A DNA stretch of 64,000 nucleotides from Acidimicrobiaceae bacterium (GCA_013204455.1 JABMNW010000192.1:2682-66681), one strand, 5' to 3'; positions 1,058 to 26,163 are shown, numbered from the stretch's first letter. The notes: generated by a model not told the origin, from the letters alone. Translations and numbers: made by a program.

Positions 1058-1108
1058 CTGGCCGTTGATGCCTAGACTAACTAATCAAATAAATCGAACG
1101 GCTGATTG

Positions 1109-1801: not shown

Positions 1802-1845
1802 GTTTTAAAAGACGAAGAAGCACACACTTTCGGCCGGTCAACTCG

Positions 1846-3772: not shown

Positions 3773-3776
3773 AGAC

Positions 3777-6255: not shown

Positions 6256-6259
6256 ACCA

Positions 6260-7417: not shown

Positions 7418-7424
7418 TAAAAAC

Positions 7425-8297
7425 TTAGAAGCGAAACAGCGAAAGAGCCGTTGCTCCCCTGATGGCTTCGCGTTCAGTTGGCGTCAAAGACGGCAACAAT
7501 ATATCGACCAGTTTTAGGGCCTGAGCGTATCCGGGTTCAAATTCAATCCATGGCCAGTCCGAGGCCATAAGCATTCGCTCTGCGCCAAATGCTGCACGCA
7601 GACGTTGCGCAATCTCGGCAAAGTCTGTAAATGGATACTCGTTATGTGTGAAAGCATACTGTCCAGAAAAATGTACGTATAGATTCGAAAACTGGCCTGC
7701 CATTTGTTCAACTACTGCTAAATCTTTTGGGGGAAGCTCCACATCAAAATGTGGACGGCGATGCTCATCAATTCTCATCTCGGCGTGCATGTCGGGGAGA
7801 AACCCACAATGGTTCAAAACAACTTTCAGCGATGGCAAAAATGTCATCACTCGTTCTAGCGCCGCAAGTTGAACTAGGTCTCCATAAAACCAAACCACCA
7901 TCCCTGCTTCGGCCATGTACTCAAGCACTCTGTAACACCCAAGTTTTCTAACATCGGTTTCGTAAGTTGCTTCTAACCCAAAAAAACGTAATCCTTGCAG
8001 ATTGGTAAGGGATAGTCGTTTCTCAAGAGAACTCACGCTGTCAGGTTTTAAGTGATCGAACACACCCACACCCACGAACTTTCCAGGATGCGATGCAAGT
8101 ACTTCGCGCAAATATTCATCGTCTCTGGAAAGTGGTACGACTATTGCGTGGTCAACCTCTGCATTGGCCATTTCGGCTAATAATTTTTCTGCAAGTTCTT
8201 CTCGATCAGCTTCGGCCATGATCGGATATGTCGTGCGCGGGAATTGATCACTCAACGATCGAAACAGGTGAAGATGTGCATCAACAACTTTGCTCAT
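7425..8297 (-). CDS. amidohydrolase-2 family metal-dependent hydrolase
   Basis: N-terminal VVDAHLHLF metal-binding motif and TIM-barrel hydrolase-like length. Confidence 0.7.
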   Translation of the reverse strand: MSKVVDAHLHLFRSLSDQFPRTTYPIMAEADREELAEKLLAEMANAEVDHAIVVPLSRDDEYLREVLASHPGKFVGVGVFDHLKPDSVSSLEKRLSLTNLQGLRFFGLEATYETDVRKLGCYRVLEYMAEAGMVVWFYGDLVQLAALERVMTFLPSLKVVLNHCGFLPDMHAEMRIDEHRRPHFDVELPPKDLAVVEQMAGQFSNLYVHFSGQYAFTHNEYPFTDFAEIAQRLRAAFGAERMLMASDWPWIEFEPGYAQALKLVDILLPSLTPTEREAIRGATALSLFRF

Positions 8298-8947
8298 ACT
8301 GATCCGTCCTTTGAAGGTCCAATTGGTCTGGTTTCAGGCTTTTGGCTTAAATATCGATGAAAAAAGAGTTCAACATGATTGCGAATGTGATCTACCTGAC
8401 TAAGTTGCGCAAGACCTAATTGTGAGTCTGATGACAACACCATCATTTTATCACCGAGCAAATAAGAGAAAAAATTCTTCGTTTTTGTAGCCGCGATATT
8501 TGGATCATCGCCGTGAATAATCATTCGAATCGACTGACTCCGATGCTCACGATTCATAATCGTCTCATCAAGCTCAGGGTTAACAAATATTTGGGCCACA
8601 ACATTGTCATCACGACCGATGTGAGCACCAGCCGTCCCTGCCCGACCAGACATAACACATCCAATTGCGCCGCCCTTAGTACCGATCTGCTGCACCACAC
8701 TTTGAAGATCGGCACGCACACGTGAAAGTTCGTGCACACCGTCAGACAGCCCGTGGCCGATTAAGTCAATTGCAATTGGTTCATAACCTCTCTCAAACAA
8801 TCGCTCAGGAAGCGAACCGTATTCGTCAAGATCAGCATCAAATGAATGGACAAGCAAAATTGGATTGGCTCCTGTACGGGCAATGTGAATACCACGAATT
8901 ATTTCGGTCGTTGATGAAGTGAACTCAATGGGTATACGCTTCGACAT
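8294..8947 (-). CDS. hypothetical protein, possibly alpha/beta-hydrolase (dienelactone-hydrolase-like) fold
   Basis: 217-aa ORF with a 4-nt overlap to the downstream gene. PILLVHSF...GHGLSDG pattern, but no canonical GxSxG elbow. Confidence 0.4.
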   Translation of the reverse strand: MSKRIPIEFTSSTTEIIRGIHIARTGANPILLVHSFDADLDEYGSLPERLFERGYEPIAIDLIGHGLSDGVHELSRVRADLQSVVQQIGTKGGAIGCVMSGRAGTAGAHIGRDDNVVAQIFVNPELDETIMNREHRSQSIRMIIHGDDPNIAATKTKNFFSYLLGDKMMVLSSDSQLGLAQLSQVDHIRNHVELFFHRYLSQKPETRPIGPSKDGSV

Positions 8948-8962
8948 GGGAACAGTATTCGC

Positions 8963-9934
8963 TTATCTAAACGGATTGAAACAACGAACCTCAGCGGCAC
9001 CTCGCGACACCAATTCGGGACGATTAACTCCACATTCTGGTACTACCCGACCACATCGGTCAGCAAACGTACAACCTTTCGGCAAGTTGTCAGGTAGCGG
9101 TACTCGACCAATAATCGGCACTAAAGCCACGGAGTTGCTTCCAAGTCGTGGAACCGCCCCAAGCAATCCTGTTGTATACGGGTGTTGTGGCACACTAAAA
9201 ACGTTTTGGACACTACCAATCTCGACAATTTCACCGGTATACATCACTGCCATACGATCGGCCACGGATGCAACTACACCCAGATTGTGCGTAATCAGCA
9301 TAATGCTCATGCCGCGTTCGTTCTTGAGATCTTTGAGTCGTTCAAGAATCTGCGCCTGAACGGTCACGTCAAGAGCAGTTGTTGGCTCGTCGGCAATGAG
9401 GATCTTAGGGTTATTAACTAACGCTAGAGCAATCATCACACGCTGTGATACGCCCCCTGACAATTGAAACGGAAACTCACCAAAGCGACGACGCGGGTCT
9501 TCAATACCAGCATCAGCAAGGCATTCGTGGGCAATTTTTTCGGCAGCCGAATCGGTTACTTTTTTATGAGCACGGATGGCTGATGTGAGTAATGTTCCCA
9601 CCGTGAACATTGGGTCAAGTGCACTCATCGGATCTTGGAAGATCATCGCAATTTCGGCACCACGTACTTTGCGAAGTTCCTCAGGCGAGACCTTCGTGAG
9701 ATCTCGGCCATCGTACGTGATTGAGCCACTCGTAATTCGTAACGGTGGGCTCGCGTGCAACCCGAGAATCGAAAGTGCTGTCAATGATTTACCGCATCCG
9801 CTCTCACCGACAATTGCCAATATCTCATTTTGATAGATCGACAAGTTAATGTTGCGAACGATGTCGTATTCAACTCGGTCCCCTTTGAGACCAACTGAAA
9901 GATCACGTAATTCGAGAAGCGGAGTTTGGCTCAT
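8963..9934 (-). CDS. peptide/nickel-type ABC transporter ATP-binding protein (DppD/OppD-like)
   Basis: Walker A GESGCGKS, signature LSGGVSQRV, Walker B LIADEPTTALD. Confidence 0.9.
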   Translation of the reverse strand: MSQTPLLELRDLSVGLKGDRVEYDIVRNINLSIYQNEILAIVGESGCGKSLTALSILGLHASPPLRITSGSITYDGRDLTKVSPEELRKVRGAEIAMIFQDPMSALDPMFTVGTLLTSAIRAHKKVTDSAAEKIAHECLADAGIEDPRRRFGEFPFQLSGGVSQRVMIALALVNNPKILIADEPTTALDVTVQAQILERLKDLKNERGMSIMLITHNLGVVASVADRMAVMYTGEIVEIGSVQNVFSVPQHPYTTGLLGAVPRLGSNSVALVPIIGRVPLPDNLPKGCTFADRCGRVVPECGVNRPELVSRGAAEVRCFNPFR

Positions 9935-9941
9935 ATCCGTA

Positions 9942-10856
9942 TTACTTCCTCAGTCGGGGGTTCGCGAGCGTGTAACCGATGCTTGCCAATAGATTTCCTA
10001 ACGTCACCACAACCACAAGGAGCAGTGAGAAAAACTGGATTACTGGATAATCTCTGCGCAGTACTGCGTTTACAAGAATTTGACCAACACCTGGCCAGCC
10101 AAAGATTGTTTCAACTACCAGCGCATAACCAACAACTTGACCGACACGCAAGCCAGCAAGCGAAATAATCGGCAACAAAGAACTACGGAGTACATGCTTA
10201 AAGTAAATACGGCGCTCACTAAAGCCAGACGCACGCAGAGTGCGCACAAAATCTTGCCCAATATTCTCCAACATTGCTGAACGCGTGATTCGCACCGTGA
10301 GTGCAATACCCTCCGCACTGAGCACTAGCGCAGGAAGAATTACAGATTTAAAACCACCTTGGCCCCCAGATGGCAACCAGTGCAACGTCGAAGCGAACAG
10401 ATGTATCGCAATCAGGGCAAGCCAAAAGTTTGGTACCGCCATACCTGCAACAGAAAATGAGGTGATGCCAGTATCAACCCATGTATTTCGTCGAAGGGCC
10501 GCAATCATGCCGAGCGGTACACCAACTAGAAAAACAATCAACAACGAGGATCCACCAAGAATGAGACTGTTCCGAATCTTTTCAACAGCCAACGAACTAA
10601 TACGCGCATTGCTGGTAAGCGAATTGCCAAGATCACCAGTTACGAAATTGCCCATGTAAGTGATGTATTGCTTTAGGATTGGCTGATCGAGACCTATCTG
10701 CTTGCGAAATAGTTCTCGATCGGCCGCCGACGCAGATGCCGGCATTCGCGCCGCAGTCACATCACCGCCGGAGAATCGGATAGCGGCAAACACAGCAAGA
10801 GATGAGGCTAGTAATAGCAGCAACGTGCTTACGATACGGCTGAAAATAATTTTCAT
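9942..10856 (-). CDS. ABC transporter permease (DppB-like)
   Basis: Six predicted hydrophobic segments and an N-terminal anchor typical of DppB/OppB permeases. Confidence 0.9.
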   Translation of the reverse strand: MKIIFSRIVSTLLLLLASSLAVFAAIRFSGGDVTAARMPASASAADRELFRKQIGLDQPILKQYITYMGNFVTGDLGNSLTSNARISSLAVEKIRNSLILGGSSLLIVFLVGVPLGMIAALRRNTWVDTGITSFSVAGMAVPNFWLALIAIHLFASTLHWLPSGGQGGFKSVILPALVLSAEGIALTVRITRSAMLENIGQDFVRTLRASGFSERRIYFKHVLRSSLLPIISLAGLRVGQVVGYALVVETIFGWPGVGQILVNAVLRRDYPVIQFFSLLLVVVVTLGNLLASIGYTLANPRLRK

Positions 10857-11704
10857 TTGGAACTTGCCCGTTCAACTGCTGTTCGCAACCGTGGATCAAG
10901 TAGATCGCGCAAACCATCACCAATCAAACTCACGCTGAGCACCATGACGAAAATTACAATGCCAGGAACCGTGGATTCCCAGTGATTGAGACGCATGTAG
11001 TTGCGGCCCTCAGAAACCATCTGGCCTAGACTCGGTAAAGGCGGTTGCGCACCCAACCCAACAAACGATAGCGAAGCCTCAGCAATAATGCCCACGGCAA
11101 CGTAGTAGGACGAGAGAACAAGTACTACCGGCATAATATTCGGCAACAAATGTCGTGTGAGAATCCGCATCGTTGAGTAACCACCTGCTCTTGCAGCGAC
11201 GACAAATTCTTTTTCTGAAAGTCCGAGCACTTCGCCGCGCACCACACGTGCGATTGCAACTGTGTTCACGAGCCCAACGGCAAGAATCACAGGTAGCAAA
11301 CCTGATCCGATACTTGCCGCAGCCAAAACAGCAACCAAGATAAGGGGGAAACCCCAAATGAAGTCGACGACCAAACTGATCATGCTGTCGACAGCACCCT
11401 TGATGTATCCCGCAACAAGGCCAATTGCAGTTCCCACAACGACTGCAATCACCGTGACTGAGATGGCGACAATTAAACTAATGCGAATTCCAACCACGAC
11501 ACGGGCGGCAATGTCACGCCCGAGAGCATCAGAGCCTAAAAGATATCCGGAGGTCATCGGAGGTAAATGACCCAGAAGTAAATCTTGATCGGTGTAATCA
11601 CCAAGCAACCATGGCCCGACGACTCCAAGTAAGACAATGACCGTGGCAAGGATAGAACCACTCACCAACTGTTTGTTTTTTCGCGCCCGACGGAGCAAGT
11701 TCAT
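10853..11704 (-). CDS. ABC transporter permease (DppC-like)
   Basis: Multi-pass membrane protein. 4-nt overlap with the DppB-like gene. Confidence 0.9.
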   Translation of the reverse strand: MNLLRRARKNKQLVSGSILATVIVLLGVVGPWLLGDYTDQDLLLGHLPPMTSGYLLGSDALGRDIAARVVVGIRISLIVAISVTVIAVVVGTAIGLVAGYIKGAVDSMISLVVDFIWGFPLILVAVLAAASIGSGLLPVILAVGLVNTVAIARVVRGEVLGLSEKEFVVAARAGGYSTMRILTRHLLPNIMPVVLVLSSYYVAVGIIAEASLSFVGLGAQPPLPSLGQMVSEGRNYMRLNHWESTVPGIVIFVMVLSVSLIGDGLRDLLDPRLRTAVERASSK

Positions 11705-11793
11705 TTGTCCACCTTGCTAAAAGTCTCGCAGGGACCCGATTGATCAAACGATCAACCGAGTCCCCACCTAAAGAAATTTCTTAAAGTTGATTC

Positions 11794-13545
11794 TTACTGA
11801 TCCAACCACACGTCGTTGTAGAGCGGGTAGAGGTTCCAGACGAATGGTGCCCAGTTCTTCACATAGTTATGGTGAACGAAAGTTGCGTACTGGTTCATCA
11901 GTGGCAGATAAGGAAGTGTGTCAGCCCATTCCAACTGGAAGTTTGAGGATGCTGCGATTCCAGCCTCTGGCGTTCCAGCTAGACGCCACTGGGTAATTGC
12001 TGCATCAATCGATGGCTCCACAGCATGCGAAAAGTTCGGCACTGGGATAGTCTCGGACGATCCGAAGATCACCAAGATGTCAAGTGGTACCGGCCAGAGC
12101 CAGAAAAACAGCGCCATTGGAGCTGCTTCACGACCCACGCCAGACTGATTTTCGAAAGCAACAGCGCGGTCAACCACCCTCAATTTGGCAATTACGCCAA
12201 CTTCTTTGAACTGCTGAGCCACTGCCTCTGAGACCAACTTCTGAGTTGTTTCGTCTTCAACGACATACTCGAACTCAAAGCGAACACCATCTCGCTCGAG
12301 CACTCCATCGCTGCCTGCGACCCAGCCGGCTTCTGCCAAATTTGACTTTGCAAGTGCCACGTCGAATTGGTTGTAACTCTCCACCTTTGGTTCGTACTGA
12401 CGGTCGGTCTTAGGGAAAGGACCGTAGGTCACATCACCGTTTCCAAACAAAATCGCATCGACCATGCCCTGACGGTTCAATGCATGCGACAGACCCTGTC
12501 GAGTCAGTTTGTCACCGAAGAACTCGGGATAGTCACGGTTCATTGAGAGTTGGTAACCCGACCATTCAGGATGCTGAATAACCGTCAAGTCAGAATTCGA
12601 CTTGAGGCGCTCAAGGTCGGCGTAACTTGGCCCGAGCAGAGTGTCAAGTTCACCATTTTCGAGCATCGTTGCACGCTGTCCCCCTTCAGTGATGACGCTC
12701 CAACGGACGGCATCGAGATATGCCGCACCTGTGTTGGTGACGTACGGTGTATTGCTACCAGGGTATGCATCCCAACGCTTTACTAACGTGTGACTGCCTG
12801 GCACCCACTCTTCGTGGGTGAATGGACCCGTACCGTCAGCGGTATCGGTGCCATACGTTGATTTAGGATCTGAACCGCCGGCAGCTTTCCATGTATCAAC
12901 GTTAGCGAGCGCCCAATAACCAGTTTTGTGTGGGTTTAGTGCACCAAGCCAAGCGTTCTTCATCTTTAGGATTACCTTGTTACCCTCAACCGAGTAACCC
13001 TCCATCGGAACTGTGGAGACTCCGCCGATGAAACTCGTGTCCTTAATAATCTGCAACAATTCGGCAACTTGGTTTGCCCCCATGACGCCGCCGCTATGGC
13101 TAACGCGACCTTCTGGAATATCAAAGGTGTAAGTCAGACCATCAGCCGACACTTCGTATGCTGCAGCAAACTGTGGAACTGTGTCACCATCAAGACCGTC
13201 AGTAACGATGGTTTCATAAATTGCACTGAAAGCCGGGTCATACCAGTTAGTGGTGATTGGATCGTGCTTTGAAACGTCACGTGGATACCCCTCGCGAAGC
13301 ATTCCTCCCACCTTTGGAGCTGAGTCCGTCGCCACGGTGTCACCAGAAGCAGTTGTATCTGCAGTTCCGGAATCAGAAGAGTTCGATCCACAAGCCGCCA
13401 AAATTGTTGCGGCTGCACCAACGCTAAAACCGACTGCGGTGAGTTTGCCTAAAAATGCGCGACGACCAAACTTTTTAGACTTGTAGTCTGCGGCAAGTTG
13501 CGCTACATCCGCACCGTATTGATCTTCGATCCATGAATTGCTCAT
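11794..13545 (-). CDS. family-5 (peptide/nickel) ABC substrate-binding lipoprotein
   Basis: 583 aa. The N-terminus carries a Tat-like GRRAFLGK motif and a lipobox ILAAC, followed by a Ser/Thr/Asp-rich linker. Confidence 0.9.
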   Translation of the reverse strand: MSNSWIEDQYGADVAQLAADYKSKKFGRRAFLGKLTAVGFSVGAAATILAACGSNSSDSGTADTTASGDTVATDSAPKVGGMLREGYPRDVSKHDPITTNWYDPAFSAIYETIVTDGLDGDTVPQFAAAYEVSADGLTYTFDIPEGRVSHSGGVMGANQVAELLQIIKDTSFIGGVSTVPMEGYSVEGNKVILKMKNAWLGALNPHKTGYWALANVDTWKAAGGSDPKSTYGTDTADGTGPFTHEEWVPGSHTLVKRWDAYPGSNTPYVTNTGAAYLDAVRWSVITEGGQRATMLENGELDTLLGPSYADLERLKSNSDLTVIQHPEWSGYQLSMNRDYPEFFGDKLTRQGLSHALNRQGMVDAILFGNGDVTYGPFPKTDRQYEPKVESYNQFDVALAKSNLAEAGWVAGSDGVLERDGVRFEFEYVVEDETTQKLVSEAVAQQFKEVGVIAKLRVVDRAVAFENQSGVGREAAPMALFFWLWPVPLDILVIFGSSETIPVPNFSHAVEPSIDAAITQWRLAGTPEAGIAASSNFQLEWADTLPYLPLMNQYATFVHHNYVKNWAPFVWNLYPLYNDVWLDQ

Positions 13546-13656
13546 TGCTGATCCCCCTGGTAATTGCTGAATATTTGTAACTCAAAAGAATATAACATAG
13601 AGTTCAGAAAAGTGCAAGCCTCAATATTTAAAAGGAATCCCAGCATTTTCAGGCCA

Positions 13657-14661
13657 TCAGACGCCTCGAATAGTGGGTAACTCAATACCTAAAATTTTAC
13701 CAATCGATTGCACTAGTTCTGCTACGCCCGGAACCACTTGCGACTCAAGAATCGGGCTAAATGGAATAGGTGCAGATTTTGCTCCAACTCGAGCCAATCT
13801 AATATTTAGGTTGCCACCGAACTTCTCGGCAAGGTGAGCAACAATTTCTGACCCAAATCCACAAAATTTCCAACTCTCGTGCGCCACGACGACATTTCGT
13901 GTGCGTAATGCAGATTCTTCGATGCAGGCGTAGTCAAGCGGCACAAGCGAACGTAAATCTATTACTTCAACATCAATGTCATATTTTTCCAATTCCTGGG
14001 CTGCCGCTAGTGCATTGTTCACCATGTCTGAATACGTGATCACTGATACTGAAGAACCCTGCCGGGCAATTCTGGCAACACCCAAAGGGATCGAGAAGTC
14101 CCCGTCCTCCACATCCGAACGCACCCCTGTAATCCGCTTATGTTCTAAATAGATAACTGGATCCGGGTCGCGAATCGCTGTTCGTAAAAGCCCCTTTGCG
14201 TCATTGGCATTCGATGGTGCTACAACCTTGAGTCCAGGAATATGGCAAAACAAATTCTCCAAACTAGAAGAGTGTTGTGGCCCCGATGAACCTCGGATTC
14301 CATCAGATGCTCGAATAACTATTGGCACAGATACTTGACCGCCAAACATGTACCTAAACTTTGAGGCTTGGTTAACAATTTCGTCCATTGCGCCAAGAGT
14401 GAACTCAACAAAACTCATTGAGGCCACAACCTTTAGCCCTGTCACAGCCGCACCAAGTGCTGCCGAAACGATTAATGCCTCCGAAATGGGCATATCTATT
14501 ATCCGAGTTGATCCAAATTTTTCTACTAGGCCACGAAACTGGCCAAAGTTTCCCCCCCAACTAATGTCCTCGCCGATCGCAATCACATTTTGATCCTCCA
14601 ACATTGCAAATTCCATTGCATCTAACGTTGCTTGGCCGAAGGTCATGCGTTTAGATGTCAT
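13657..14661 (-). CDS. 2-oxoacid (pyruvate/acetoin-type) dehydrogenase E1 component, beta subunit
   Basis: Transketolase-like Pyr and C-terminal domains (IAIGEDI..., VIRASDG, YLEHKR). Start at 14661 (MTSKRMTF) or 14646. The longer ORF-track start overlaps E1 alpha extensively. Confidence 0.85.
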   Translation of the reverse strand: MTSKRMTFGQATLDAMEFAMLEDQNVIAIGEDISWGGNFGQFRGLVEKFGSTRIIDMPISEALIVSAALGAAVTGLKVVASMSFVEFTLGAMDEIVNQASKFRYMFGGQVSVPIVIRASDGIRGSSGPQHSSSLENLFCHIPGLKVVAPSNANDAKGLLRTAIRDPDPVIYLEHKRITGVRSDVEDGDFSIPLGVARIARQGSSVSVITYSDMVNNALAAAQELEKYDIDVEVIDLRSLVPLDYACIEESALRTRNVVVAHESWKFCGFGSEIVAHLAEKFGGNLNIRLARVGAKSAPIPFSPILESQVVPGVAELVQSIGKILGIELPTIRGV

Positions 14662-15655
14662 GTAAAATATCTTCCGAAAAGACATCCCGAAGAGCGTCCG
14701 ATGGCAGTGGAAATTCTGAATCTCTGGCAAATTCTTCTGCTAAACCAATTTCGTGGTCAACCTGACTTTGCAACGCATCGAATGTGGCGAGATCCAACCA
14801 ACCAGAGTCAAATAATTTGACTTTAAATCTCTCGATCGGATCCTTTTGCTTCATCAAATCAACTTCACTCTTTGATCTATAAACCTCAGCGTCTCCAACG
14901 TAATGACCGCTGAAGCGATAACTCTTCATGTCTAGAAGGGTCGGCCCAAGACCAGACCTCGCCCGAACAATGGCAATCCTCATTGCACCGATGACTTCGA
15001 GCAGGTCATTGCCATCCAATGTGTCACCATGCATTCCATATGTCTCCGCGCGGCTTGCAATGTTTTCATTTGCGGTTGTTCGTCGCATGTCAGTGAATTG
15101 CGCATATCCATTGTTTTCGCACACAAAAATTACTGGAAGCTTGTGAAGACCGGCAAAGTTGAGGGATTCGTGAAATGTACCTTTATTTAGGGCTCCGTCG
15201 CCAAAGAAACAAACGACGACGTCCGAAGTCTTTCGATATTTGCAGGAGAGCGCCGCACCCACTGCAATCCCATAACCCCCACCAACGATCCCGTTTGCGC
15301 CAAGCATCCCAATCGAAAAATCTGCGACGTGCATAGAGCCGCCCCTGCCACGGCATGCACCGGTGACTTTTCCAAACAACTCTGCAAAAATTGAGTTAAG
15401 GCTGATCCCTTTGGCGATCGAATGCCCGTGACCACGGTGTGTTGATGTTACGAAGTCTGTTAGAAGGAGCGAACTGCAAACTCCCACAGCAATCGCCTCT
15501 TGACCTGCACATGAATGAATAAAGCCAGGAAGTTGACCGTCGAGGAATAACACCCCAACTCTGGTTTCGAATGCCCGAATTTTCACCATCATTCGCAAAT
15601 GCGCCAGCGCATACTCTCGACCAATATCTTCTAGCGGGATCGCCAATTGAGTCAT
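14651..15655 (-). CDS. 2-oxoacid dehydrogenase E1 component, alpha subunit (TPP-binding)
   Basis: TPP motif region FFGDGALNKG...FVCENNGYA. Confidence 0.85.
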   Translation of the reverse strand: MTQLAIPLEDIGREYALAHLRMMVKIRAFETRVGVLFLDGQLPGFIHSCAGQEAIAVGVCSSLLLTDFVTSTHRGHGHSIAKGISLNSIFAELFGKVTGACRGRGGSMHVADFSIGMLGANGIVGGGYGIAVGAALSCKYRKTSDVVVCFFGDGALNKGTFHESLNFAGLHKLPVIFVCENNGYAQFTDMRRTTANENIASRAETYGMHGDTLDGNDLLEVIGAMRIAIVRARSGLGPTLLDMKSYRFSGHYVGDAEVYRSKSEVDLMKQKDPIERFKVKLFDSGWLDLATFDALQSQVDHEIGLAEEFARDSEFPLPSDALRDVFSEDILHDI

Positions 15656-16428
15656 TGTGCGGTAAATCCACCGTCTATAGCCAGTACTTGTCCAGTCACC
15701 ATCCGAGACGAGTTGCCCGCAAGAAATATTGCTCCACCAACAATGTCAGAGGTTTCCCCTAAGTGTCCCATCGGTGTGCGTGATTCGAAAAACTGTTTCA
15801 TCTGTGGTTCTATCACCCATTGCTTCATCACAAGATCCGTCGCAATATGACCTGGGGCAATTGCATTCACACGAACTTGGTGCGGCGCCCATTCAATTGC
15901 AAGAGATTTCGTCAACTGAATAACACCACCCTTGCTGGCTTGATAGCCAACACTTCCTGCGAAACCAACTATGCCACCAATTGATGCAATATTGATGATT
16001 GAACCGTGTCGTTGCTCGATCATTTTACGACCCACAGAGCGACACATTCTGAACATGCCAGTCAAGTTTGTATTAATCACTTTGTCCCAGACCTCATCGG
16101 TGTAATCAACGGCTGGAGAACGTCCACCAATTCCAGCACAGTTCACACAAATATCAATTGATCCACACATCTCTATCGCTTTTGTCACCGCATCGTTTAC
16201 CGATTGTGACTCGCAGACATCAAGATGTAAAAGTTTTGAATGCTTCGTATTTAACACATCATCTCGTATATTGGCATTGGAATACGAACGATCAGCTGCG
16301 ATAACGAAGGCGCCCTCTTCGATAAACGCTTGAGAGATTGCGCCACCAATTCCGCCTGCAGAACCCGTAACGATTGCGGTCATCCCCGACAAAGAGAATC
16401 TTCCTGGACTACTTTTCGATTTTGTCAT
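15652..16428 (-). CDS. SDR-family oxidoreductase
   Basis: TGSAGGIGGAI cofactor motif, YQASK catalytic motif. 4-nt overlaps on both sides. Confidence 0.85.
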   Translation of the reverse strand: MTKSKSSPGRFSLSGMTAIVTGSAGGIGGAISQAFIEEGAFVIAADRSYSNANIRDDVLNTKHSKLLHLDVCESQSVNDAVTKAIEMCGSIDICVNCAGIGGRSPAVDYTDEVWDKVINTNLTGMFRMCRSVGRKMIEQRHGSIINIASIGGIVGFAGSVGYQASKGGVIQLTKSLAIEWAPHQVRVNAIAPGHIATDLVMKQWVIEPQMKQFFESRTPMGHLGETSDIVGGAIFLAGNSSRMVTGQVLAIDGGFTAQ

Positions 16429-16679
16429 TCTGCGCTGACGATTCTGCCGATAACAGTCCCCGCACCAATTTCAACATCAGACGCTTGGATAAGTATCTCT
16501 AAGCGCCCGTCACATGGGGCTTCCATCTCAACTTGCGACTTTTCTGACTCATAAATTACTAGTGGGGTTCCGGCAATTACATTTGCGCCGTGCTCGACCA
16601 GCCACTCAATAATTATAACTTCTTTGGCGAGGCCACTATGGGGAATTACTAACTGCCGAATTTGGTTAGATATGTCCAT
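16425..16679 (-). CDS. free-standing lipoyl-attachment domain protein (about 84 aa)
   Basis: VIYESEKSQVEMEAPCDGRL matches the lipoyl-lysine hairpin (E-[ST]-[DE]-K-[AS]-x-x-E-[VIM]-x-[AS]-P). Start at ATG 16679 (MDISNQ). No acyltransferase catalytic domain follows. Confidence 0.6.
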   Translation of the reverse strand: MDISNQIRQLVIPHSGLAKEVIIIEWLVEHGANVIAGTPLVIYESEKSQVEMEAPCDGRLEILIQASDVEIGAGTVIGRIVSAE

Positions 16680-17340
16680 GACGAGCGAGACCTTCCAAAG
16701 GACTGAACCCATTTCGCATATCAGTTCGCACAAGCAATTCGATCCCAGCGATTTCCTCCGACTTTAGTAGAACTGTTTCTGCGTACTCACGCGGAACAAT
16801 TAACACACCATCGAACTCCGCGATCACTATGTCACCAGGACTTACCTCTACCCCATCAATTTTTATTTTTTCTTGACACGACAGCATTTCCCATCGGCCT
16901 ATTCCATTCAGTGGAGATAGGTCGCGATAAAAAACTTGTAATCCAATATCTCTTAATCCACTAGTGTCTCTCAAATTCCCATCCAAGATCACACCAGTGC
17001 AACCACGCTCCAACGCCGAATTACCAGTCAGTTCGCCAAAGTGGCCGCATGAACTACTGGGATTTGTTGAAACGATCACATGGTCCGGCTGCAATCGTTC
17101 GAATGCCCTTAAGTACGATGCAATCCGCACTTTTCCTTCGTCCCAACTAACGACAGGGTCAATTGCCGCCCCTTGCACCGTGAATGCGTGACCCACAATT
17201 CTTCTTTCTGGAAAGAGCGGTCGCAATCCTGTCGAAAGCAATTGCTCTGGTATACCAAGTTCGTAAAGAGCATCGCATACGACCGGGAGATAGACGGCCC
17301 TAAATCGCTCGCAAATTTCGTTCACTGAAATTGCTGGCAT
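16666..17340 (-). CDS. RraA-family protein (4-hydroxy-4-methyl-2-oxoglutarate aldolase/oxaloacetate decarboxylase-like)
   Basis: GCTGVILDGNLRD block typical of RraA/HMG aldolases. Start at MPAISV (17340), 20 nt downstream of the preceding gene's stop. Confidence 0.7.
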   Translation of the reverse strand: MPAISVNEICERFRAVYLPVVCDALYELGIPEQLLSTGLRPLFPERRIVGHAFTVQGAAIDPVVSWDEGKVRIASYLRAFERLQPDHVIVSTNPSSSCGHFGELTGNSALERGCTGVILDGNLRDTSGLRDIGLQVFYRDLSPLNGIGRWEMLSCQEKIKIDGVEVSPGDIVIAEFDGVLIVPREYAETVLLKSEEIAGIELLVRTDMRNGFSPLEGLARHGHI

Positions 17341-17359
17341 GACCCGGTCCTGTCTATCT

Positions 17360-18634
17360 CTATTTGGTTTTTTCAAGATAACGCAGCGCTGAAAGCGCGT
17401 AAATCATTGCCGACTCAGCCGCTCCATTTACGTGCATACTCTCATTTGGGCTATGCGCTCGTGGCAAATACCCTGGCCCAAATGACGCAATACAGGGCAC
17501 GCCCGCGACGGTCTGAATATAAGCGGCATCGGTTGCTCCTGGAAACGCGTCCAACTTTGGTACCTGACCAATAATTTGCGCAGTAACGCTTTGCAAGCAA
17601 TCTACAACTGGATCTTCAGCATCAATCTCAGTTGCCCCGACCATCAGATACCACTCCAACTCAGCACGAAGTTCTGGATCACTTTTCTTTGCATCATCAA
17701 GAAATCGCAATATGTCGCACTTAATCTGCTCTTCCGCCATGCCAGGAACTGTGCGCACATCGCATGCAAACTCGGCGCGACCTGGAAATACTCCGTAGGT
17801 GACTCCTGATTGAGCAGTGACTCCTACATTTACTGTGGGACCAAACCGACATAACGGATGCTCATTGAACGTTAAATAACCCTTAAGCTCCTTTTGCATC
17901 TTGAGCGCAAGTTCTGCCATTTTCAGTGTTGCATTTATCGCTGGTAACTGATCAGATATCGACGAATGCATTTGAGTCCCATAAACGACTACTTTGAATA
18001 GTGCCGCTCCACGAGATACAAGGTGTATAGCTTCCCACTCTCGAAGAATGCCGCCCGGCTCTCCGATCACGCATACATCAGCCTTGATGTAACCCTCTTC
18101 CGCCAGCCATTTGGAACCATAAACGGATCCGTTTTCCTCATCAGCGGTTAACGCCAAAGCAATAGCTCCTGGAAAAGAGTCAAGGGTGCGCAGGGCCGCA
18201 ACAGCGTAAACCATGCCTGCAATTGCAGCCTTCATATCTCCACAACCGAGCCCGATAAGTTGGTCATCTTGCACAACGGCATCAAGCGGGTTGGTCTTCC
18301 ATTGCGAAAGATCACCTGGGGGCTTTGTATCAATATGGCCAGAGAACATTATGCACCGACCAGTTTGCTTGCCGATGACTTCAGCAATCACATTCGGTCG
18401 CGTCGGATCTAGTCCCACGATTCTTACATCTTCAATCCCAAGATTAATTAGCCTGTACTTTAGTACCTCGCTGACTTCTCTTTCATCGCCTGGCGGATTT
18501 ATCGAAGGGGTTCGAATTAACTCACAGGTGAAATCAAAAATCTCTTCCTGCTTCGATCGAATATATCTGGCAACTTCTTTCTCGTTATCAGAAAGCAGAA
18601 ATTTATCAATATCCTGGAATAGTTGCTTCATCAT
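17360..18634 (-). CDS. M20-family metallopeptidase/deacylase (ArgE/DapE-like)
   Basis: FSGHIDTKPPGD and GCGDMKAAIAG metal-ligand motifs. Confidence 0.85.
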   Translation of the reverse strand: MMKQLFQDIDKFLLSDNEKEVARYIRSKQEEIFDFTCELIRTPSINPPGDEREVSEVLKYRLINLGIEDVRIVGLDPTRPNVIAEVIGKQTGRCIMFSGHIDTKPPGDLSQWKTNPLDAVVQDDQLIGLGCGDMKAAIAGMVYAVAALRTLDSFPGAIALALTADEENGSVYGSKWLAEEGYIKADVCVIGEPGGILREWEAIHLVSRGAALFKVVVYGTQMHSSISDQLPAINATLKMAELALKMQKELKGYLTFNEHPLCRFGPTVNVGVTAQSGVTYGVFPGRAEFACDVRTVPGMAEEQIKCDILRFLDDAKKSDPELRAELEWYLMVGATEIDAEDPVVDCLQSVTAQIIGQVPKLDAFPGATDAAYIQTVAGVPCIASFGPGYLPRAHSPNESMHVNGAAESAMIYALSALRYLEKTK

Positions 18635-19794
18635 CTTCCACCCTTTTTTAGAAAATCTGCGATTCCAATTATTCCTTTTTCAATCGTGGACTCACTTGCC
18701 GCAAGAGATATTCGAACCATTCCTATCCCACCTGGACCAAAAACTGACCCAGGTGCAATACTAACTTTGTGTGATTTAAGAAGATCTAATGCGAATTTAA
18801 CATCACCGGTTGATCCGTAGTCCCCGACGTTTAGAAGCATATAAATCGTGCCAGCAGATTTAACCGCTCTGATTTTGTTGTTTGTCGCTATTTCGAGTGC
18901 GAGACCCAATCGCTTGCGGTAGGACGTCAACATTGCGTCGATCGGCGCCCGAGGACCAGTTAATGCTGCTTCGGCGGCTTTCTGCGAAATCGTACTCGGA
19001 CACGAAACCTGTGGCTCCTGAAGAGTTCGGGCCAAATCGGCGACTTGACGATTTGCTACCAAGTAACCGACACGCCATCCTGTCATCGCATATACCTTTG
19101 AAAAACTAAAAATCGAAATCACTCTTCCGTCATCATCAAATCTCGCGGCTGGTACATGTCGCACACTTTCATCAAGAACTAATTCGTCGTAGACTTCATC
19201 ACTAACAATCCATAAATCGTTTTGATTCGCAAACTCGACCAATGCCGTCATCGTTTTATCATCAAATACGCACCCTGTTGGGTTGGATGGCGAATTTATG
19301 AATAACACTTTGGTACGCGGAGTCACCAATGACTTCAATTCATCAAGGTCTGGTAAGAAACTGGTCTCAGCTTTTAAGTGATAAAAAACTGGCTTTGATG
19401 AATACAGCCGAATCATCTCGTCCATATTTGGAAAACCCGGTGTTGGCAATAAGACTTCATCACCTGGCTCCAGCAAAATACCAAAAGTTGAATAAAGAGC
19501 GTTCATCCCACCGGGAGTAACTACAACTTCGTCGATCTCGGCGGAAATCTCATTAACTTTAAAAAGCTTCTCAACTAATAGTTCGCGTAGTGATAAAAGT
19601 CCGCCGTTGGGGCCGTATCCCGTATGACCGTCGTGCGCCGCTTTTGCGGCTGCATCAATTATGTGCGATGGAGTTGTAAAACTTGGCTCGCCAACTTCCA
19701 GCCGTAGAGCACCAGGAGTCTTTGCCGCTGCATCAAACAGAACTCGTATTTCTGAACGGCGATAAGCGAGCGCTCGATCTGCTTGTAACTTCAA
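18631..19794 (-). CDS. class I/II PLP-dependent aminotransferase (paralogue of 6260..7417)
   Basis: SFSKVYAMTGWRVGY and NSPSNPTG motifs. Confidence 0.85.
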   Translation of the reverse strand: MKLQADRALAYRRSEIRVLFDAAAKTPGALRLEVGEPSFTTPSHIIDAAAKAAHDGHTGYGPNGGLLSLRELLVEKLFKVNEISAEIDEVVVTPGGMNALYSTFGILLEPGDEVLLPTPGFPNMDEMIRLYSSKPVFYHLKAETSFLPDLDELKSLVTPRTKVLFINSPSNPTGCVFDDKTMTALVEFANQNDLWIVSDEVYDELVLDESVRHVPAARFDDDGRVISIFSFSKVYAMTGWRVGYLVANRQVADLARTLQEPQVSCPSTISQKAAEAALTGPRAPIDAMLTSYRKRLGLALEIATNNKIRAVKSAGTIYMLLNVGDYGSTGDVKFALDLLKSHKVSIAPGSVFGPGGIGMVRISLAASESTIEKGIIGIADFLKKGGR

Positions 19795-20360
19795 TTATTC
19801 TTCCCCTTGCCTTCTACTTTCTTTTCAAGGTCGGGCCTCTGTCCCGCATCAAAGTATTTCAGTGACCAGTCTGCACCCTGCCAAGTTGTCAACTTTTGGT
19901 TTACTGGAGTGAGTTTGACCAAATATCTTTCCCAACCGTACGAAGCAACAAGTTGCTCTGGGCCACTAGGCCCCGAATAGCGTGTTGCCATCTCGTTTGC
20001 TACCGGCACCCATTTTGAGTTTTCGCCCTTGGCAGGACCCTCAACAATTTCTGCTCTACATTTAGCAAGAACTTTTCTTATTCTTGGATGAGCTAGCTCT
20101 TCGATACATATCGCACATCGGTCGTCCTTCTTTAAAAGTTCCACCCATTTTGAACGTTTCCGTCCAATAACATAGAAAGCTTCGCCGGTCCATTGGTACC
20201 AAAGCGGAACTGATGTTGGCCAACCATCATTATCCAAACACGACAGTTTTAACAACCATCTACTGGTCGGGCTCGCAAGAAACTCTGCGACTTCATCTAG
20301 GTTCATTCCACCAGCGCTTGAGCCCTCTTCGTAGTATCGCTCCTGTTTAAAATCACTCAC
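19791..20360 (-). CDS. PPOX-like split-barrel protein, paralogue 2 (most divergent)
   Basis: SVPLWYQWTGEAFYVIGRKRSKW aligns with the WYHWDG block of the other two paralogues. It is the first gene of the minus-strand operon. Confidence 0.6.
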   Translation of the reverse strand: MSDFKQERYYEEGSSAGGMNLDEVAEFLASPTSRWLLKLSCLDNDGWPTSVPLWYQWTGEAFYVIGRKRSKWVELLKKDDRCAICIEELAHPRIRKVLAKCRAEIVEGPAKGENSKWVPVANEMATRYSGPSGPEQLVASYGWERYLVKLTPVNQKLTTWQGADWSLKYFDAGQRPDLEKKVEGKGKNN

Positions 20361-20458
20361 AACGCCACCATTCCATGCGATTTGCAGATTGGATTTTATA
20401 TAGTATAACTTGGCGTGATTGGCTACGTCAAATCTGCGCTGATAGATAGGGCCATCCA

Positions 20459-22219
20459 GTGAGTTTCAAATCCTCAACTTCTCAAAAAATCCCTGGCTTT
20501 GATGTAGTGGTCGAGCGTGATGCGATTTGCGAAATGCGTGATGGCGTAATCCTGCGAAGTGATATCTATCGACCTGATGCACCTGGAACTTACCCAGTAC
20601 TGCTGGCACGGGGGCCATACGACAAGTGTGTTGCCTTATCATCATTTGGAAATTCGCACGCAGCTTGGTTTGCAGAACATGGCTACATCGTGATCATCCA
20701 AGACACTCGTGGGAGATATTCATCCGACGGAGTTTTCTATCCATTTGCAAACGAAGCTCACGATGGATTTGATTCAGTTGAATGGGCGGCAAAAGTATCT
20801 GGGTCAGATGGGCAAGTTGGAATGTTTGGGTTTTCATATCTAGGGGCGACACAACTGCTTGCCGCAGTATTAAAACCTCCATCGCTTAAGGCAATTGTGC
20901 CTGCGTTTACTGCTTCCCAATACTTTGATGGATGGACATACAACGGTGGCGCATTTGCATTGGCCTTCAACTGCTATTGGGCAAATCTTTTATCAATCGA
21001 AACTGCGGGTCGAGCAGGTGACATTGAATCCATGGAAGCGCTCGTGACCAGTCTCGGATCTGCGAACAACTGGTTTTGGTCTGTCCCTCTCAAGGATTAT
21101 CCGCCGTTGAAAAATAAATATGCTCCATACTTTTTTGACTGGTTAGAACACCCAACTTACGACGAATACTGGCGACGCTGGAGCATCGATGAAAATTATT
21201 CACAAATCGATGTTCCTGCTTTACACATCGGCGGCTGGTATGACATCTTTCTTTCTGGAACTGTAAAAAACTTCTGCGGTATATCCCGCGATGGTAGTTC
21301 TGAGAAAACGCGGAACTCGCAAAAACTCCTGATCGGCCCATGGACCCACATGCCCTGGAGTCCAGTTGGAAATACAGGAAAAACTGAGCCGAGTACATCA
21401 GTCATCGACGACTGGACTTTGCGGTGGTTTGATGAATTTTTGAAGAATAAACATACTGGCGTTCTAGAGAACCCCGTAACCCTCTACCCAGTAAATGGGG
21501 AAAGACGGGATTATTCTTCTTGGCCCAATGGTGATGTAAGCGTTCGAGAGTGGTTTCTTCATTCTGATGGTCGTGCAAACTCCAAGTTTGGTGATGGACG
21601 ATTAGACCAAAAGCAACCAAGAAATGAACACGCCGACCTGTTTATATCGGACCCAGCAATCCCAATCCAAAGCAATGGTGGACATAGTTGCTGTTTCGAC
21701 GCGATTACTCCAATGGGACCTGCAGATCAAAATACGAGTGAGTCTTCACGTATGGTCCTTGTATACACAAGTGAGCCCTTTGCTAAGGAAACTCTGATAG
21801 TTGGCGATGCGAGTCTCCTGATATTTGCTAGTTCATCTGCAATTGACACCGATTTCGCTGCGCGGCTTTGTGAAGTGAGCATCGACGGCGTAAGCACGAA
21901 TATCCAAGAAGGAATAATCCGTTCTAAATATCAGAATTCGCTTGAGCACCCTAATTTCAATGAGCCAAATGTAATCCACGAGTACACAATTCAACTTGGC
22001 CCTGTTGGTTATTTAATGGCGAAAGGTTCAAAACTACGTGTTGCTATCGCCGGCAGTGACTTTCCACAGTGGGATAGAAATACTCAGTCCGGCAAACATA
22101 ACTTTGACGAACGGTTGTCCCAGTTTCAGCCAGCAACTCAAGTGCTCTTCCATGATGAGACTCGACAAAGTCGGCTTCGAATTTCTGTTTTGAGCTCACC
22201 AAGCAGATTCACGAAATAG
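20459..22219 (+). CDS. CocE/NonD-family (S15, X-Pro dipeptidyl-peptidase-like) hydrolase
   Basis: LLARGPYDK region, nucleophile elbow GFSYLG, about 586 aa with a C-terminal beta-sandwich-length extension. GTG start. Confidence 0.8.
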   Translation: MSFKSSTSQKIPGFDVVVERDAICEMRDGVILRSDIYRPDAPGTYPVLLARGPYDKCVALSSFGNSHAAWFAEHGYIVIIQDTRGRYSSDGVFYPFANEAHDGFDSVEWAAKVSGSDGQVGMFGFSYLGATQLLAAVLKPPSLKAIVPAFTASQYFDGWTYNGGAFALAFNCYWANLLSIETAGRAGDIESMEALVTSLGSANNWFWSVPLKDYPPLKNKYAPYFFDWLEHPTYDEYWRRWSIDENYSQIDVPALHIGGWYDIFLSGTVKNFCGISRDGSSEKTRNSQKLLIGPWTHMPWSPVGNTGKTEPSTSVIDDWTLRWFDEFLKNKHTGVLENPVTLYPVNGERRDYSSWPNGDVSVREWFLHSDGRANSKFGDGRLDQKQPRNEHADLFISDPAIPIQSNGGHSCCFDAITPMGPADQNTSESSRMVLVYTSEPFAKETLIVGDASLLIFASSSAIDTDFAARLCEVSIDGVSTNIQEGIIRSKYQNSLEHPNFNEPNVIHEYTIQLGPVGYLMAKGSKLRVAIAGSDFPQWDRNTQSGKHNFDERLSQFQPATQVLFHDETRQSRLRISVLSSPSRFTK

Positions 22220-24840: not shown

Positions 24841-24864
24841 TCGAAATTCGACAGTTTGGAGAAA

Positions 24865-25695
24865 ATGATGTCGTCAGGTATCGCTCATATTAACGGAACA
24901 AAAATATGGTACGAATTATCTGGCTCGGGTGATGTAGTTGTTCAAATCGGTGGAGCAGTTAGCGCGCATGAAGGGTACGAGACTGTTACACCCGATATCG
25001 CAAAACACTTCACTGTCCTTAACTATGACCACAGAGGTTACGGCCTCAGCGCTAGACCAAAACAGCAATATACGATTCAGACGTGGTGTGATGATCTTGA
25101 AGCATTGCTCGCTGAACTAAATATCGAGAAAGCTCACATTCATGGCGGATCAATGGGCAGTTTCATTGCAATTGCGTTTGCCATCAAGTATCCAAAGCGA
25201 GTGGGAAAATTACTATTAGGTGCAGGTGCAGTAGCTAAATGCGACGACATGGGAATCTCTCATTTTCGCGTTTGGCAATACCTGGCGAAATCTTATGGAG
25301 TTGGTTCTCCCGAGGTTGCAGACGAACTTGTAAATAAAGCATTCTCTCGCGAATACATCGATACCCAGAGTCGCGAAAAGTTGATTACTTTAATGCAAGA
25401 CACAGCACAAAGAAACGCTGACACAAATGTGTTTATCGATGCTTGTCAAGTGATGATCGACGCTGATGTCGGTTCAGATTTATCTGCGATCGAAGCCCCA
25501 ACTTTAGTTATGGTGGGCTCCGAAGATGTACTAACCCCACTCGATGCTGGACCAGCGGGTTTTGGTGCGCGCAAGGTGGCAGAAGCAATCAAGAGATCTG
25601 AGTTACGCGTTTTTGCGGGTAGCGGGCATGGACATTACGCGGAACGCGCGACAGAATCTATCGATGCAATTCTGGGATTCTTAAAAAATAGCTAG
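24865..25695 (+). CDS. alpha/beta-fold hydrolase
   Basis: HRGYGLS, nucleophile elbow HGGSMGS, C-terminal GSGHG. Start is ambiguous (TTG 24856, ATG 24865 or 24868). Confidence 0.8.
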   Translation: MMSSGIAHINGTKIWYELSGSGDVVVQIGGAVSAHEGYETVTPDIAKHFTVLNYDHRGYGLSARPKQQYTIQTWCDDLEALLAELNIEKAHIHGGSMGSFIAIAFAIKYPKRVGKLLLGAGAVAKCDDMGISHFRVWQYLAKSYGVGSPEVADELVNKAFSREYIDTQSREKLITLMQDTAQRNADTNVFIDACQVMIDADVGSDLSAIEAPTLVMVGSEDVLTPLDAGPAGFGARKVAEAIKRSELRVFAGSGHGHYAERATESIDAILGFLKNS

Positions 25696-25701
25696 TTGAG
25701 T

Positions 25702-26163
25702 TCAACCGGTCGTTGGGTTCCGCCAGATTGGTCCGCGCTCGATGACCTTGTCGAGGAGACCCTCTTCAAGATATGTCGGGTAGTCCCGTGCGTTCACTGG
25801 CTTGGCGACCTGGCCCTGGTATCCGAGTCGGGATCGGACACCCGCGTCGGTGTAGTAGCCAGCCACAATCACCATCTGCAGAGCCGCCTCGGCTTCGGGT
25901 TCGTGAGCGGCAAGGGCAGCAAGGCGGACAGAAGGATCGTCACCGAGTTCGTACCGTAACGCGGCGATGAGAGGGTCGAACAGATCCGGCCGGGTGCGTA
26001 AGACGAAGCGAAGCTGCGCTGCCGTTACGACTTCGCCGGCCGACGGCATCCCGTGTGCGGCCGGAATCAAATAATCGGCAACCGAAGCCAGCGTCGCGAT
26101 GCGATCGCGGCCGAGTTCGAACATCGAATCGCCGGGCGTGATCTCGACTGGTTCAGCATTCAT
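25702..26163 (-). CDS. gluconate 2-dehydrogenase subunit-3-like small protein (partner of the GMC oxidoreductase)
   Basis: 153 aa with an ATGA overlap to the GMC gene. Recognised by its pairing with a GMC flavoprotein and general sequence character. No Tat signal seen. Confidence 0.5.
   Translation of the reverse strand: MNAEPVEITPGDSMFELGRDRIATLASVADYLIPAAHGMPSAGEVVTAAQLRFVLRTRPDLFDPLIAALRYELGDDPSVRLAALAAHEPEAEAALQMVIVAGYYTDAGVRSRLGYQGQVAKPVNARDYPTYLEEGLLDKVIERGPIWRNPTTG

Follow-up and report, generated by a model that had tools for sequence, protein, structure and literature searches.

Textbooks present lipoate-dependent dehydrogenases as giant scaffolded complexes in which substrate channelling is held to require the E2 core. 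How might a thiamine diphosphate (ThDP)-dependent E1 operate if its operon supplies the lipoyl domain as a separate small protein, with neither an E2 catalytic domain nor an E3? This question is raised by a 64,000-nucleotide stretch of DNA (the window below, at its full length) from Acidimicrobiaceae bacterium GCA_013204455.1. The window is positions 2682-66681 of contig JABMNW010000192.1 (C178 here) of a metagenome-assembled genome (MAG), the assembly of which is 1.77 Mb in 208 contigs and 73% complete; the genome in full is about 2.4 Mb. Window positions 13657-20360 are spanned by eight minus-strand genes in the order PPOX-like protein, aminotransferase, M20 deacylase, RraA-like protein, lipoyl protein, short-chain dehydrogenase/reductase (SDR), E1 alpha and E1 beta. 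An earlier reading made from the nucleotides alone (the sequence-only reading) had described these coupled genes in this order, and all of them are present, with their families upheld by profile searches of the window proteins against Pfam and NCBIfam. We suggest that they include a stripped-down system of the acetoin/pyruvate dehydrogenase type in which only the lipoyl domain is left of E2 and the loaded carrier is unloaded in trans by an E2 core and dihydrolipoamide dehydrogenase (Lpd), a tentative reading to which we assign a probability of about 0.45.

The 84-amino-acid lipoyl carrier

The stand-alone lipoyl protein (P0002; 84 amino acids; positions 16425-16679, minus strand) matches PF00364 at 40.9 bits against a cutoff of 22.1. 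This is its only domain, and PF01597 (GCV_H) gave no match. Its NCBIfam matches are confined to the lipoyl regions of AcoC and of the E2s of pyruvate dehydrogenase (PDH) and 2-oxoglutarate dehydrogenase (OGDH). It contains the motif ESEKSQVEMEAP, in which the lysine is residue 47 and is set in the context S-E-K-S, not M-K-M. This candidate lipoyl-lysine falls on the DKA lipoyl-lysine in alignments with solved E2 and E3-binding protein (E3BP) lipoyl domains, which are the top sequence matches in the PDB, and it is invariant, together with Trp26, Gly31, Gly37 and Gly58, in 23 aligned stand-alone and E2-borne domains. An AlphaFold2 model of the protein (predicted local distance difference test score, pLDDT, 85.8) is a barrel in which strands 39-45 and 48-53 form a beta-hairpin with Lys47 at its tip. 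The claim that the lipoyl domain is a separate small protein dedicated to the operon's E1 stands.

Is the domain lipoyl or biotinyl? A Foldseek search with the model returned human and E. coli lipoyl domains at a template modeling (TM) score of 0.8, and it also returned biotinyl domains; because the two kinds of domain share a fold, Foldseek alone cannot discriminate between them. The lipoyl identity is argued instead from the E-K-S motif, the sequence relatives and the E1 context. A sequence search over 1.84 billion representatives yielded 794 relatives, and the best 150 of these 794 comprise full E2s interspersed with two dozen proteins of 69-111 amino acids; the closest fused relatives have the architecture lipoyl-PSBD-2-oxoacid_dh (PSBD, the E3-binding or subunit-binding domain). 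The profile search of the small protein that the sequence-only reading had proposed as a check comes down on the side of an E2-type lipoyl domain and not a biotinyl one.

The orthologues of the carrier in syntenic clusters keep a length of about 84 amino acids (74-95) and are 55-96% identical, and the ratio of nonsynonymous to synonymous substitution rates (dN/dS) is 0.10-0.24 for the closest lipoyl pairs, the only ones for which it is usable, which indicates purifying selection. No such ratio is given for the larger operon genes because their synonymous sites are saturated. The SDR gene overlaps the end of the lipoyl gene by 4 nt, and PF00198 (the E2 catalytic domain) is silent on the contig, so no E2 remnant is hidden here, which settles a second check that had been proposed. 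A decaying E2 remnant is ruled out by the steady length, the dN/dS below 1 and the lack of PF00198 on the contig, and a biotinyl domain is ruled out by the E-K-S motif and by the sequence relatives, all of which are lipoyl domains of E2s or mini-proteins linked to E1. The small open reading frame (ORF) is best taken as an E2-type lipoyl domain that looks functional. The lipoylation enzymes LipB and LipA are encoded in the genome, on contig C97, and by this gene content the carrier can presumably be lipoylated by them at candidate Lys47.

The E1 and the SDR

E1 alpha (334 amino acids; 14651-15655, minus strand) matches PF00676 at 256 bits and reaches 339 bits with TIGR03182, whose cutoff is 394. 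It has the GDG...NN motif of ThDP enzymes at residues 152-182, and its His251 aligns with the active-site histidine that adjoins Ser264 of human PDHA1. E1 beta (326 amino acids; 13657-14637, minus strand; orthologues 320-327 amino acids) has the Transket_pyr and Transketolase_C domains (PF02779 and PF02780), matches solved E1 beta chains at the 1e-63 level, and carries His122 in a conserved QHS motif. We take His251 of E1 alpha and His122 of E1 beta to act in reductive acylation, by analogy with the human and Geobacillus E1p enzymes. With the ThDP motif intact and both histidines kept, the E1 looks competent.

The gene between the carrier and E1 alpha encodes an SDR of 258 amino acids (15652-16428, minus strand; adh_short_C2, 207 bits) that resembles polyol or hydroxy-acid dehydrogenases. 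It overlaps the lipoyl gene and the E1 alpha gene by 4 nt each and is translationally coupled on both sides. Both the TGxxxGxG and the YxxxK motifs are present, the GolD/DthD subfamily fits best among NCBIfam models (235 bits; cutoff 286), and the closest solved structures are sorbitol, polyol and galactitol dehydrogenases. Because of this likeness, and because the same gene stands beside a full E2 in a sister operon (L076, below), we infer by analogy with the butanediol dehydrogenase of aco operons that the SDR would make or handle the keto or hydroxy substrate in its free form. A co-fold of the SDR with the carrier, computed from alignments, gave an ipSAE interface score of 0.00, a value that carries no weight for or against binding.

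E2, E3 and sibling modules in the same genome

The sequence-only reading found no E2 core or E3 in the window, and this holds for the operon, the window and the whole of C178: PF00198 and PF02852 (E3 dimerization) have no match anywhere on the contig, so the absence is wider than the window, and there is no adjacent E2/E3 pair on the contig. The genome search that it called for did find E2 cores and a single E3 on other contigs, as follows: C125 has an E1 alpha-E1 beta-E2 operon; C97 has an lpd-E2-lipB-lipA locus, which holds the genome's sole PF02852 match; and C83 encodes an OdhA-like E2-E1o fusion that has no lipoyl domain and is consistent with the actinobacterial phylum. The lipoyl-bearing E2s elsewhere in the MAG are thus two (C125 and C97), and C187 encodes a biotinyl acyl-CoA carboxylase.

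The MAG also carries two further modules of E1 alpha and beta with a mini-lipoyl protein. On C168 (locus L021, 6495-10417) the order is E1 beta-E1 alpha-lipoyl (80 amino acids)-RidA-Iso_dh, and an enolase-superfamily gene, an SDR and a peptide-transporter ATPase adjoin it. On C180 (L022, 7085-11277) it is PhyH-amidohydrolase-SDR-cupin-Zn-ADH-lipoyl (89 amino acids)-E1 alpha-E1 beta-FAH, with a GntR regulator. The three carriers are only 30-33% identical to one another, and every module is accompanied by a secondary-alcohol or hydroxy-acid dehydrogenase of its own. No candidate transferase common to the three modules is found among their genes. The same solution is therefore repeated in three paralogous modules of one genome in which one E3 was found.

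Distribution and origin of the lipoyl-only operons

The whole eight-gene order recurs on other contigs (all recovered from metagenome assemblies), over the range of carrier identities given above. A different genome (L024) has the four-gene core lipoyl-SDR-E1 alpha-E1 beta behind a major facilitator superfamily (MFS) transporter gene, with 54-61% identity, and a full E2 gene two genes off on the opposite strand. In the 35 remaining species representatives of the genus the window E1 alpha has no orthologue (the best match is 45-46% identical), so the island around the operon is accessory; a mini-lipoyl gene, of the C168 type, is present in one of the 35 (G008). Among GTDB representatives the closest E1 alpha proteins are about 50% identical, and nearly all of their genes are followed by one for a full-length E2.

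An E1 alpha tree of 89 rows, rooted on the C125 E1 alpha of the same genome, was built with a quick IQ-TREE search and has several long branches. In it the window sequence forms a clade with those of L027, L025 and L024 (support 99), all four of which have the order lipoyl-SDR-E1 alpha-E1 beta. The sister of this clade (support 89) is an Actinomycetota pair, L076 and L055. L076 (Gaiellales) has M24-M20-E1 alpha-E1 beta-SDR and a full E2 of 414 amino acids. L055 (Thermoleophilaceae, 5621-14451) has the same five genes followed by a 170-amino-acid stub with the lipoyl and E3-binding (PSBD) domains and no catalytic domain, and then an SDR, a hydrolase that matches the AcoC hydrolase half (102.6 bits against PRK14875 positions 113-369) and an enolase-superfamily gene. 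To judge from these matches L055 may be a split AcoC-type E2. A split AcoC, with lipoyl domain and alpha/beta hydrolase acting in trans, was also considered for the window and rejected: the window hydrolases are more PcaD-like, and the closest fused relatives of the carrier are classical E2s. The idea fits L055 better than the window, for which it survives only within the hydrolytic reading (below).

The window carrier is 36-37% identical to the lipoyl domains of L076 and L055, and because these sister operons hold a full E2 or a lipoyl-PSBD stub, the carrier is a reduced E2. The relatives form a reduction series from full E2 to lipoyl plus PSBD to lipoyl only, and by the same gene orders the links of E1 with M20 and with the SDR are older than the loss of E2. 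An M20 gene also lies ahead of E1 in L055, L076 and L070, and the linkage of M20 and M24 peptidases to the sister-clade E1 operons agrees with a context of amino-acid processing, as had been proposed for the operon, or of peptide processing. The lipoyl-only state has at least two origins on the tree, probably about five; the C168 and C180 E1 alpha sequences are long branches elsewhere in it, and their placement is unsure. One further relative is instructive: locus L105 (Bacteroidaceae, 8001-12803) has E1 alpha-E1 beta, an 88-amino-acid lipoyl protein, a 593-amino-acid protein with a B12-binding domain, and a catalytic-only E2 (PF00198, 269 bits), and this split indicates that carrier and E2 core can be separate polypeptides.

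Two other settings of related E1s were noted. The nearest plasmid-borne relatives of E1 alpha, at 50% identity, are rhizobial (L029, Rhizobium NZ_CP072144.1; L030, S. meliloti pRM41A) and are encoded in sugar/polyol loci with a sorbitol phosphotransferase system, a sugar ATP-binding cassette transporter and a sugar kinase. There the order is a 442-amino-acid NAD(P)H-dependent oxidoreductase, E1 alpha, E1 beta and E2, and in L030 LpdA and LipA come next; the gene content suggests a dehydrogenase complex tied to carbohydrate use, for which we found no counterpart among described pathways. In L070 (Chloroflexota, 5536-13784) a gene for a Rieske/VanA-like oxygenase lies between those for E1 alpha and E1 beta, with a YheO-like regulator, RidA and M20 upstream and a 100-amino-acid lipoyl protein, an SDR and an amidohydrolase downstream.

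How might the carrier be unloaded?

The scheme that we favor would run as follows: The M20 enzyme, the aminotransferase, the RraA-like lyase and the SDR would convert an imported peptide-like or N-acylated amino compound to a 2-oxo or alpha-hydroxyketone substrate. The dedicated alpha2beta2 E1 with ThDP would cleave this substrate and reductively acylate the Lys47-lipoate of the free carrier, which has no subunit-binding domain and would diffuse like the H-protein of the glycine cleavage system. An E2 core encoded elsewhere (the candidates are the two ordinary E2s and the lipoyl-less OdhA-type E2 domain) would transfer the acyl group to CoA, and the genome's single dihydrolipoamide dehydrogenase would reoxidize the carrier. 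The class of feedstock suggested by the M20, aminotransferase and RraA-type lyase genes and by a peptide-type importer (below) is that of N-acylated or peptide-like amino compounds. For E3 and for E2 cores a free lipoyl domain is a usable substrate, as even free lipoamide is. Unloading by an E2 core and Lpd that act in trans would be plausible because the corynebacterial OdhA likewise works in trans, with lipoyl domains that belong to AceF, and because carrier and E2 core are separate in L105.

Several points weigh against this scheme. Use of a housekeeping E2 in trans would be kinetically poor because the carrier has no docking domain, and a dedicated transferase could be absent from the assembly because the MAG is 73% complete. 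The lipoyl-only state has been kept through deep divergence (55% identity), so that a new dedicated partner is equally conceivable, and the island's several alpha/beta hydrolases could discharge the thioester without CoA. Finally, the E1 is not an ordinary PdhA, because it scores below the TIGR03182 cutoff.

Could the E2 scaffold instead be gone for good? E1 and mini-lipoyl protein would then make up a distinct, recurrent class of lipoate system in which the carrier is discharged by something other than E2 (a hydrolase or another acceptor), oxidative carbon-carbon cleavage is uncoupled from CoA, and several modules are served by a single Lpd. We consider this possible, with the odds clearly on the other side. 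The main rival to unloading in trans, CoA-independent oxidative cleavage, which we find rather unlikely, has E1 load the carrier, the thioester hydrolyzed by an alpha/beta hydrolase of the island or spontaneously, and Lpd reoxidize the carrier, so that NADH and a carboxylate are formed without any E2. In its favor, the loss of the E2 core is stable throughout the clade, and alpha/beta hydrolases are present in every version of the island (3726-4598, 8294-8947 and 24856-25695 in the window; 13007-13825, directly after E1 beta, in L025); in L055, too, the lipoyl-PSBD stub is followed by the hydrolase that resembles the AcoC half. However, the window hydrolases fit PcaD-type enol-lactonases better than AcoC (115 versus 61 bits), that of 217 amino acids is only a partial 24-bit match, and the loss of the thioester energy would be unusual. 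In L024, moreover, no hydrolase is in view beside the four-gene core, but a full E2 lies two genes off.

A carrier that serves as a redox mediator, or that is vestigial, is an improbable alternative. The E1 would then be mainly a ThDP lyase or carboligase, or would pass electrons to the dithiolane for a reductase (the PPOX-like protein, for example) without productive acyl transfer. E1 alpha/beta pairs without a lipoyl partner are found in sugar-branching pathways (AviB1/B2), L089 has E1 alpha-E1 beta-SDR with no lipoyl gene in view, and the island contains three PPOX-like genes. Against these observations stand the purifying selection on the carrier and its invariant lysine, the retention of the E1 histidines linked to lipoyl acylation, and the presence of a carrier in all three independent modules of the genome.

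The sequence-only reading had itself favored a carrier-protein pathway, in which the SDR or other enzymes of the operon would act on an acyl or hydroxyalkyl group while it is still bound to the lipoyl arm, and the group would be released only afterwards. ThDP/lipoyl systems do pass a two-carbon unit to an acyl carrier protein in the quinocarcin and naphthyridinomycin pathways, and the order lipoyl-SDR-E1 alpha-E1 beta is kept, with its 4-nt overlaps, down to 54% SDR identity and in the unrelated setting of L024. On the other hand, the SDR resembles polyol dehydrogenases that act on free substrates, its orthologue holds the same position beside the full-length E2 of L076, so that it is not tied to a free carrier, and we know of no SDR that acts on lipoyl-bound groups. 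The proposal that the SDR or another enzyme works on a carrier-bound group found no support here, and we think it quite improbable, more so than the redox role. That the small ORF is a decaying E2 remnant or a biotinyl domain is scarcely credible: its descent from E2 and the inability of Foldseek to split the two folds are all that speak for it, whereas the conserved length and low dN/dS of the orthologues, the lack of room for E2 remains, the silence of PF00198 and the finding that all relatives are E2 lipoyl domains or E1-linked mini-proteins speak against it.

Comparison with known systems

The acetoin dehydrogenase system (AcoA/AcoB, AcoC and AcoL, often with a butanediol/acetoin SDR) is the closest characterized counterpart of the window module. 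The window shares with it a heterotetramer-type E1, apparently of the PDH-y/Aco branch (TIGR03182 is the best model, although below cutoff), a secondary-alcohol SDR beside E1 and an E3 that is often encoded elsewhere, and the nearest GTDB E1 alpha relatives include clostridial E1 alpha-E1 beta-E2 sets. The relatives of the window E1 alpha in the tree are uncharacterized E1s with E2s, the tree having been built without a characterized AcoA sequence. In some species the acetoin system has an atypical AcoC E2 with a hydrolase-fold catalytic half (NCBIfam PRK14875). The window lipoyl protein, in contrast, has no catalytic half of any kind and no subunit-binding domain, and its context is amino-acid and peptide processing rather than butanediol. 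With the canonical E1-E2-E3 complex the window shares a ThDP E1 with intact motifs, and an E3 is encoded in the genome outside the operon; the single chain of lipoyl domain, subunit-binding domain and acyltransferase core that typifies such complexes is what the window operon lacks.

Wanner and Soppa (2002, J Bacteriol 184:3114) reportedly described a Haloferax volcanii E1 operon with a gene for an "unattached lipoyl domain". By this gene arrangement the closest published parallel to the window would be the Haloferax oadhAB2 and oadhAB3 operons (see also van Ooyen and Soppa 2007), which likewise have E1 alpha and E1 beta genes without E2 or E3 in the operon. A table in PMC8305020 lists pyruvate and 2-oxoglutarate as excluded substrates of oadhAB2/oadhAB3, the true substrates as unidentified, and the Haloferax oadh E1s as 40-54% identical to AcoAB. 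The Haloferax unit is archaeal and has three genes, whereas the window module is bacterial, lies within an eight-gene operon with an SDR, and is one of three paralogous modules in its genome. Our literature search returned no readable description of stand-alone or unattached lipoyl domains, truncated E2s, or the Sulfolobus/Haloferax operons. The Pelobacter "lipoyl carrier protein LarG" was considered and set aside as H-protein-like and unrelated.

The glycine cleavage system (P, H, T and L proteins) is our working analogy: there, too, a small lipoyl protein that diffuses freely is loaded by one enzyme (a decarboxylase), gives up its load to another (a transferase) and is reoxidized by a shared Lpd. 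The window differs in that its carrier is E2-type and not GCV_H, its loader is a ThDP E1 and not the pyridoxal phosphate (PLP)-dependent P-protein, and no T-protein counterpart was identified. A second analogy is the actinobacterial OdhA/Kgd with AceF/DlaT. Hoffelder et al. (2010) are said to have found the lipoyl and E2 catalytic domains on different polypeptides, acting in trans, in the actinobacterial mixed PDH-ODH supercomplex, and the MAG encodes a lipoyl-less OdhA-like E2-E1o fusion of this kind. OdhA, though, borrows its lipoyl domain from a full E2 within a stable complex, and the window lipoyl protein is free and has no docking domain.

What is new here is a free, E2-derived carrier that is bacterial and embedded in an operon, that occurs three times in one small genome, and whose relatives form a reduction series. 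At the window and at two more loci of a streamlined genome, selection kept E1 and the swinging-arm domain and dropped the scaffold. Should the carriers be unloaded in trans, a single E2/E3 set could serve each new substrate-specific E1 that a small genome takes up; if they are unloaded otherwise, the lipoate chemistry would be of a kind not yet described. Three proteins plus a lipoyl ligase make up this small module; it is easily reconstituted and so offers a route to the substrates of widespread unassigned E1 genes, possibly including those of the Haloferax oadh operons.

The remaining operon genes and the flanking DNA

The first operon gene encodes the PPOX-like protein of 189 amino acids (19791-20360, minus strand), a split-barrel protein of PNPOx/F420 type with weak PNPOx_N and TIGR03618 matches, both below cutoff; it keeps the first place in L025, L027 and L028 (72-78% identity). 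It overlaps by 4 nt the gene for a class I/II PLP aminotransferase of 387 amino acids (18631-19794, minus strand; PF00155, 200 bits), whose NCBIfam matches are AspAT-like subfamilies, all below their equivalog cutoffs, and whose orthologues are 66-74% identical. A further 4-nt overlap leads to the ArgE/DapE-family M20 deacylase or peptidase of 424 amino acids (17360-18634, minus strand; PF01546 and M20_dimer; TIGR01910 at 214 bits against a cutoff of 217.6). The RraA-like protein (16666-17376, minus strand; HMG/CHA-aldolase or oxaloacetate-decarboxylase family; PF03737, 91.7 bits) may start at ATG 17340 (224 amino acids, as its orthologues are called) or at TTG 17376 (236 amino acids), so that its junction with the M20 gene is a 19-nt gap or, with the TTG start, a 17-nt overlap; its closest solved structures include 4-carboxy-4-hydroxy-2-oxoadipate aldolase (3noj). 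It overlaps the lipoyl gene by 14 nt, and at the other end of the core E1 alpha and E1 beta are separated by a 13-nt gap.

Upstream of the first gene, in a 98-nt divergent intergenic region, lies a putative promoter on the minus strand (TTGACG-18-TATACT, 20402-20431), a pattern match only, which is the best match to the consensus within 7000-21000 (10 of 12 positions). Downstream, E1 beta is followed by a 111-nt gap in which a terminator-like site was looked for and none was seen, and the transcription unit probably runs on into importer, hydrolase and Amidohydro_2 genes (7425-13545, minus strand, by family assignments; the order after E1 beta is the same in L027 and in a 31.9-kb contig). By family matches these encode, all on the minus strand, a Dpp/Opp-type binding protein (SBP_bac_5, 11794-13545), two permeases, a DppD-type ATPase (8963-9934), the alpha/beta hydrolase of 217 amino acids (8294-8947) and an Amidohydro_2 protein (7425-8297). 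On the divergent arm lie genes for a CocE/NonD hydrolase, two SDRs, an EthD protein, a second PPOX-like protein and a PcaD-like hydrolase. The far left of the window has the third PPOX-like gene and genes for a further hydrolase, a YceI-like protein and a GntR/FCD regulator, the last of which is a candidate for control of the island as a whole.

Part of this far-left region (1106-4598) is a block of the GntR/FCD regulator, two proteins without a Pfam match, the YceI-like protein and an Abhydrolase_1 protein. Largely the same families, plus an FAD-linked oxidase, directly abut E1 beta in L025 (13007-18242); the island is rearranged around its transporter genes. On the other side, the island's last hydrolase gene abuts a G+C-rich segment (25702-30335; 57-61% versus about 47%) that encodes a GMC oxidoreductase and a luciferase-like monooxygenase.

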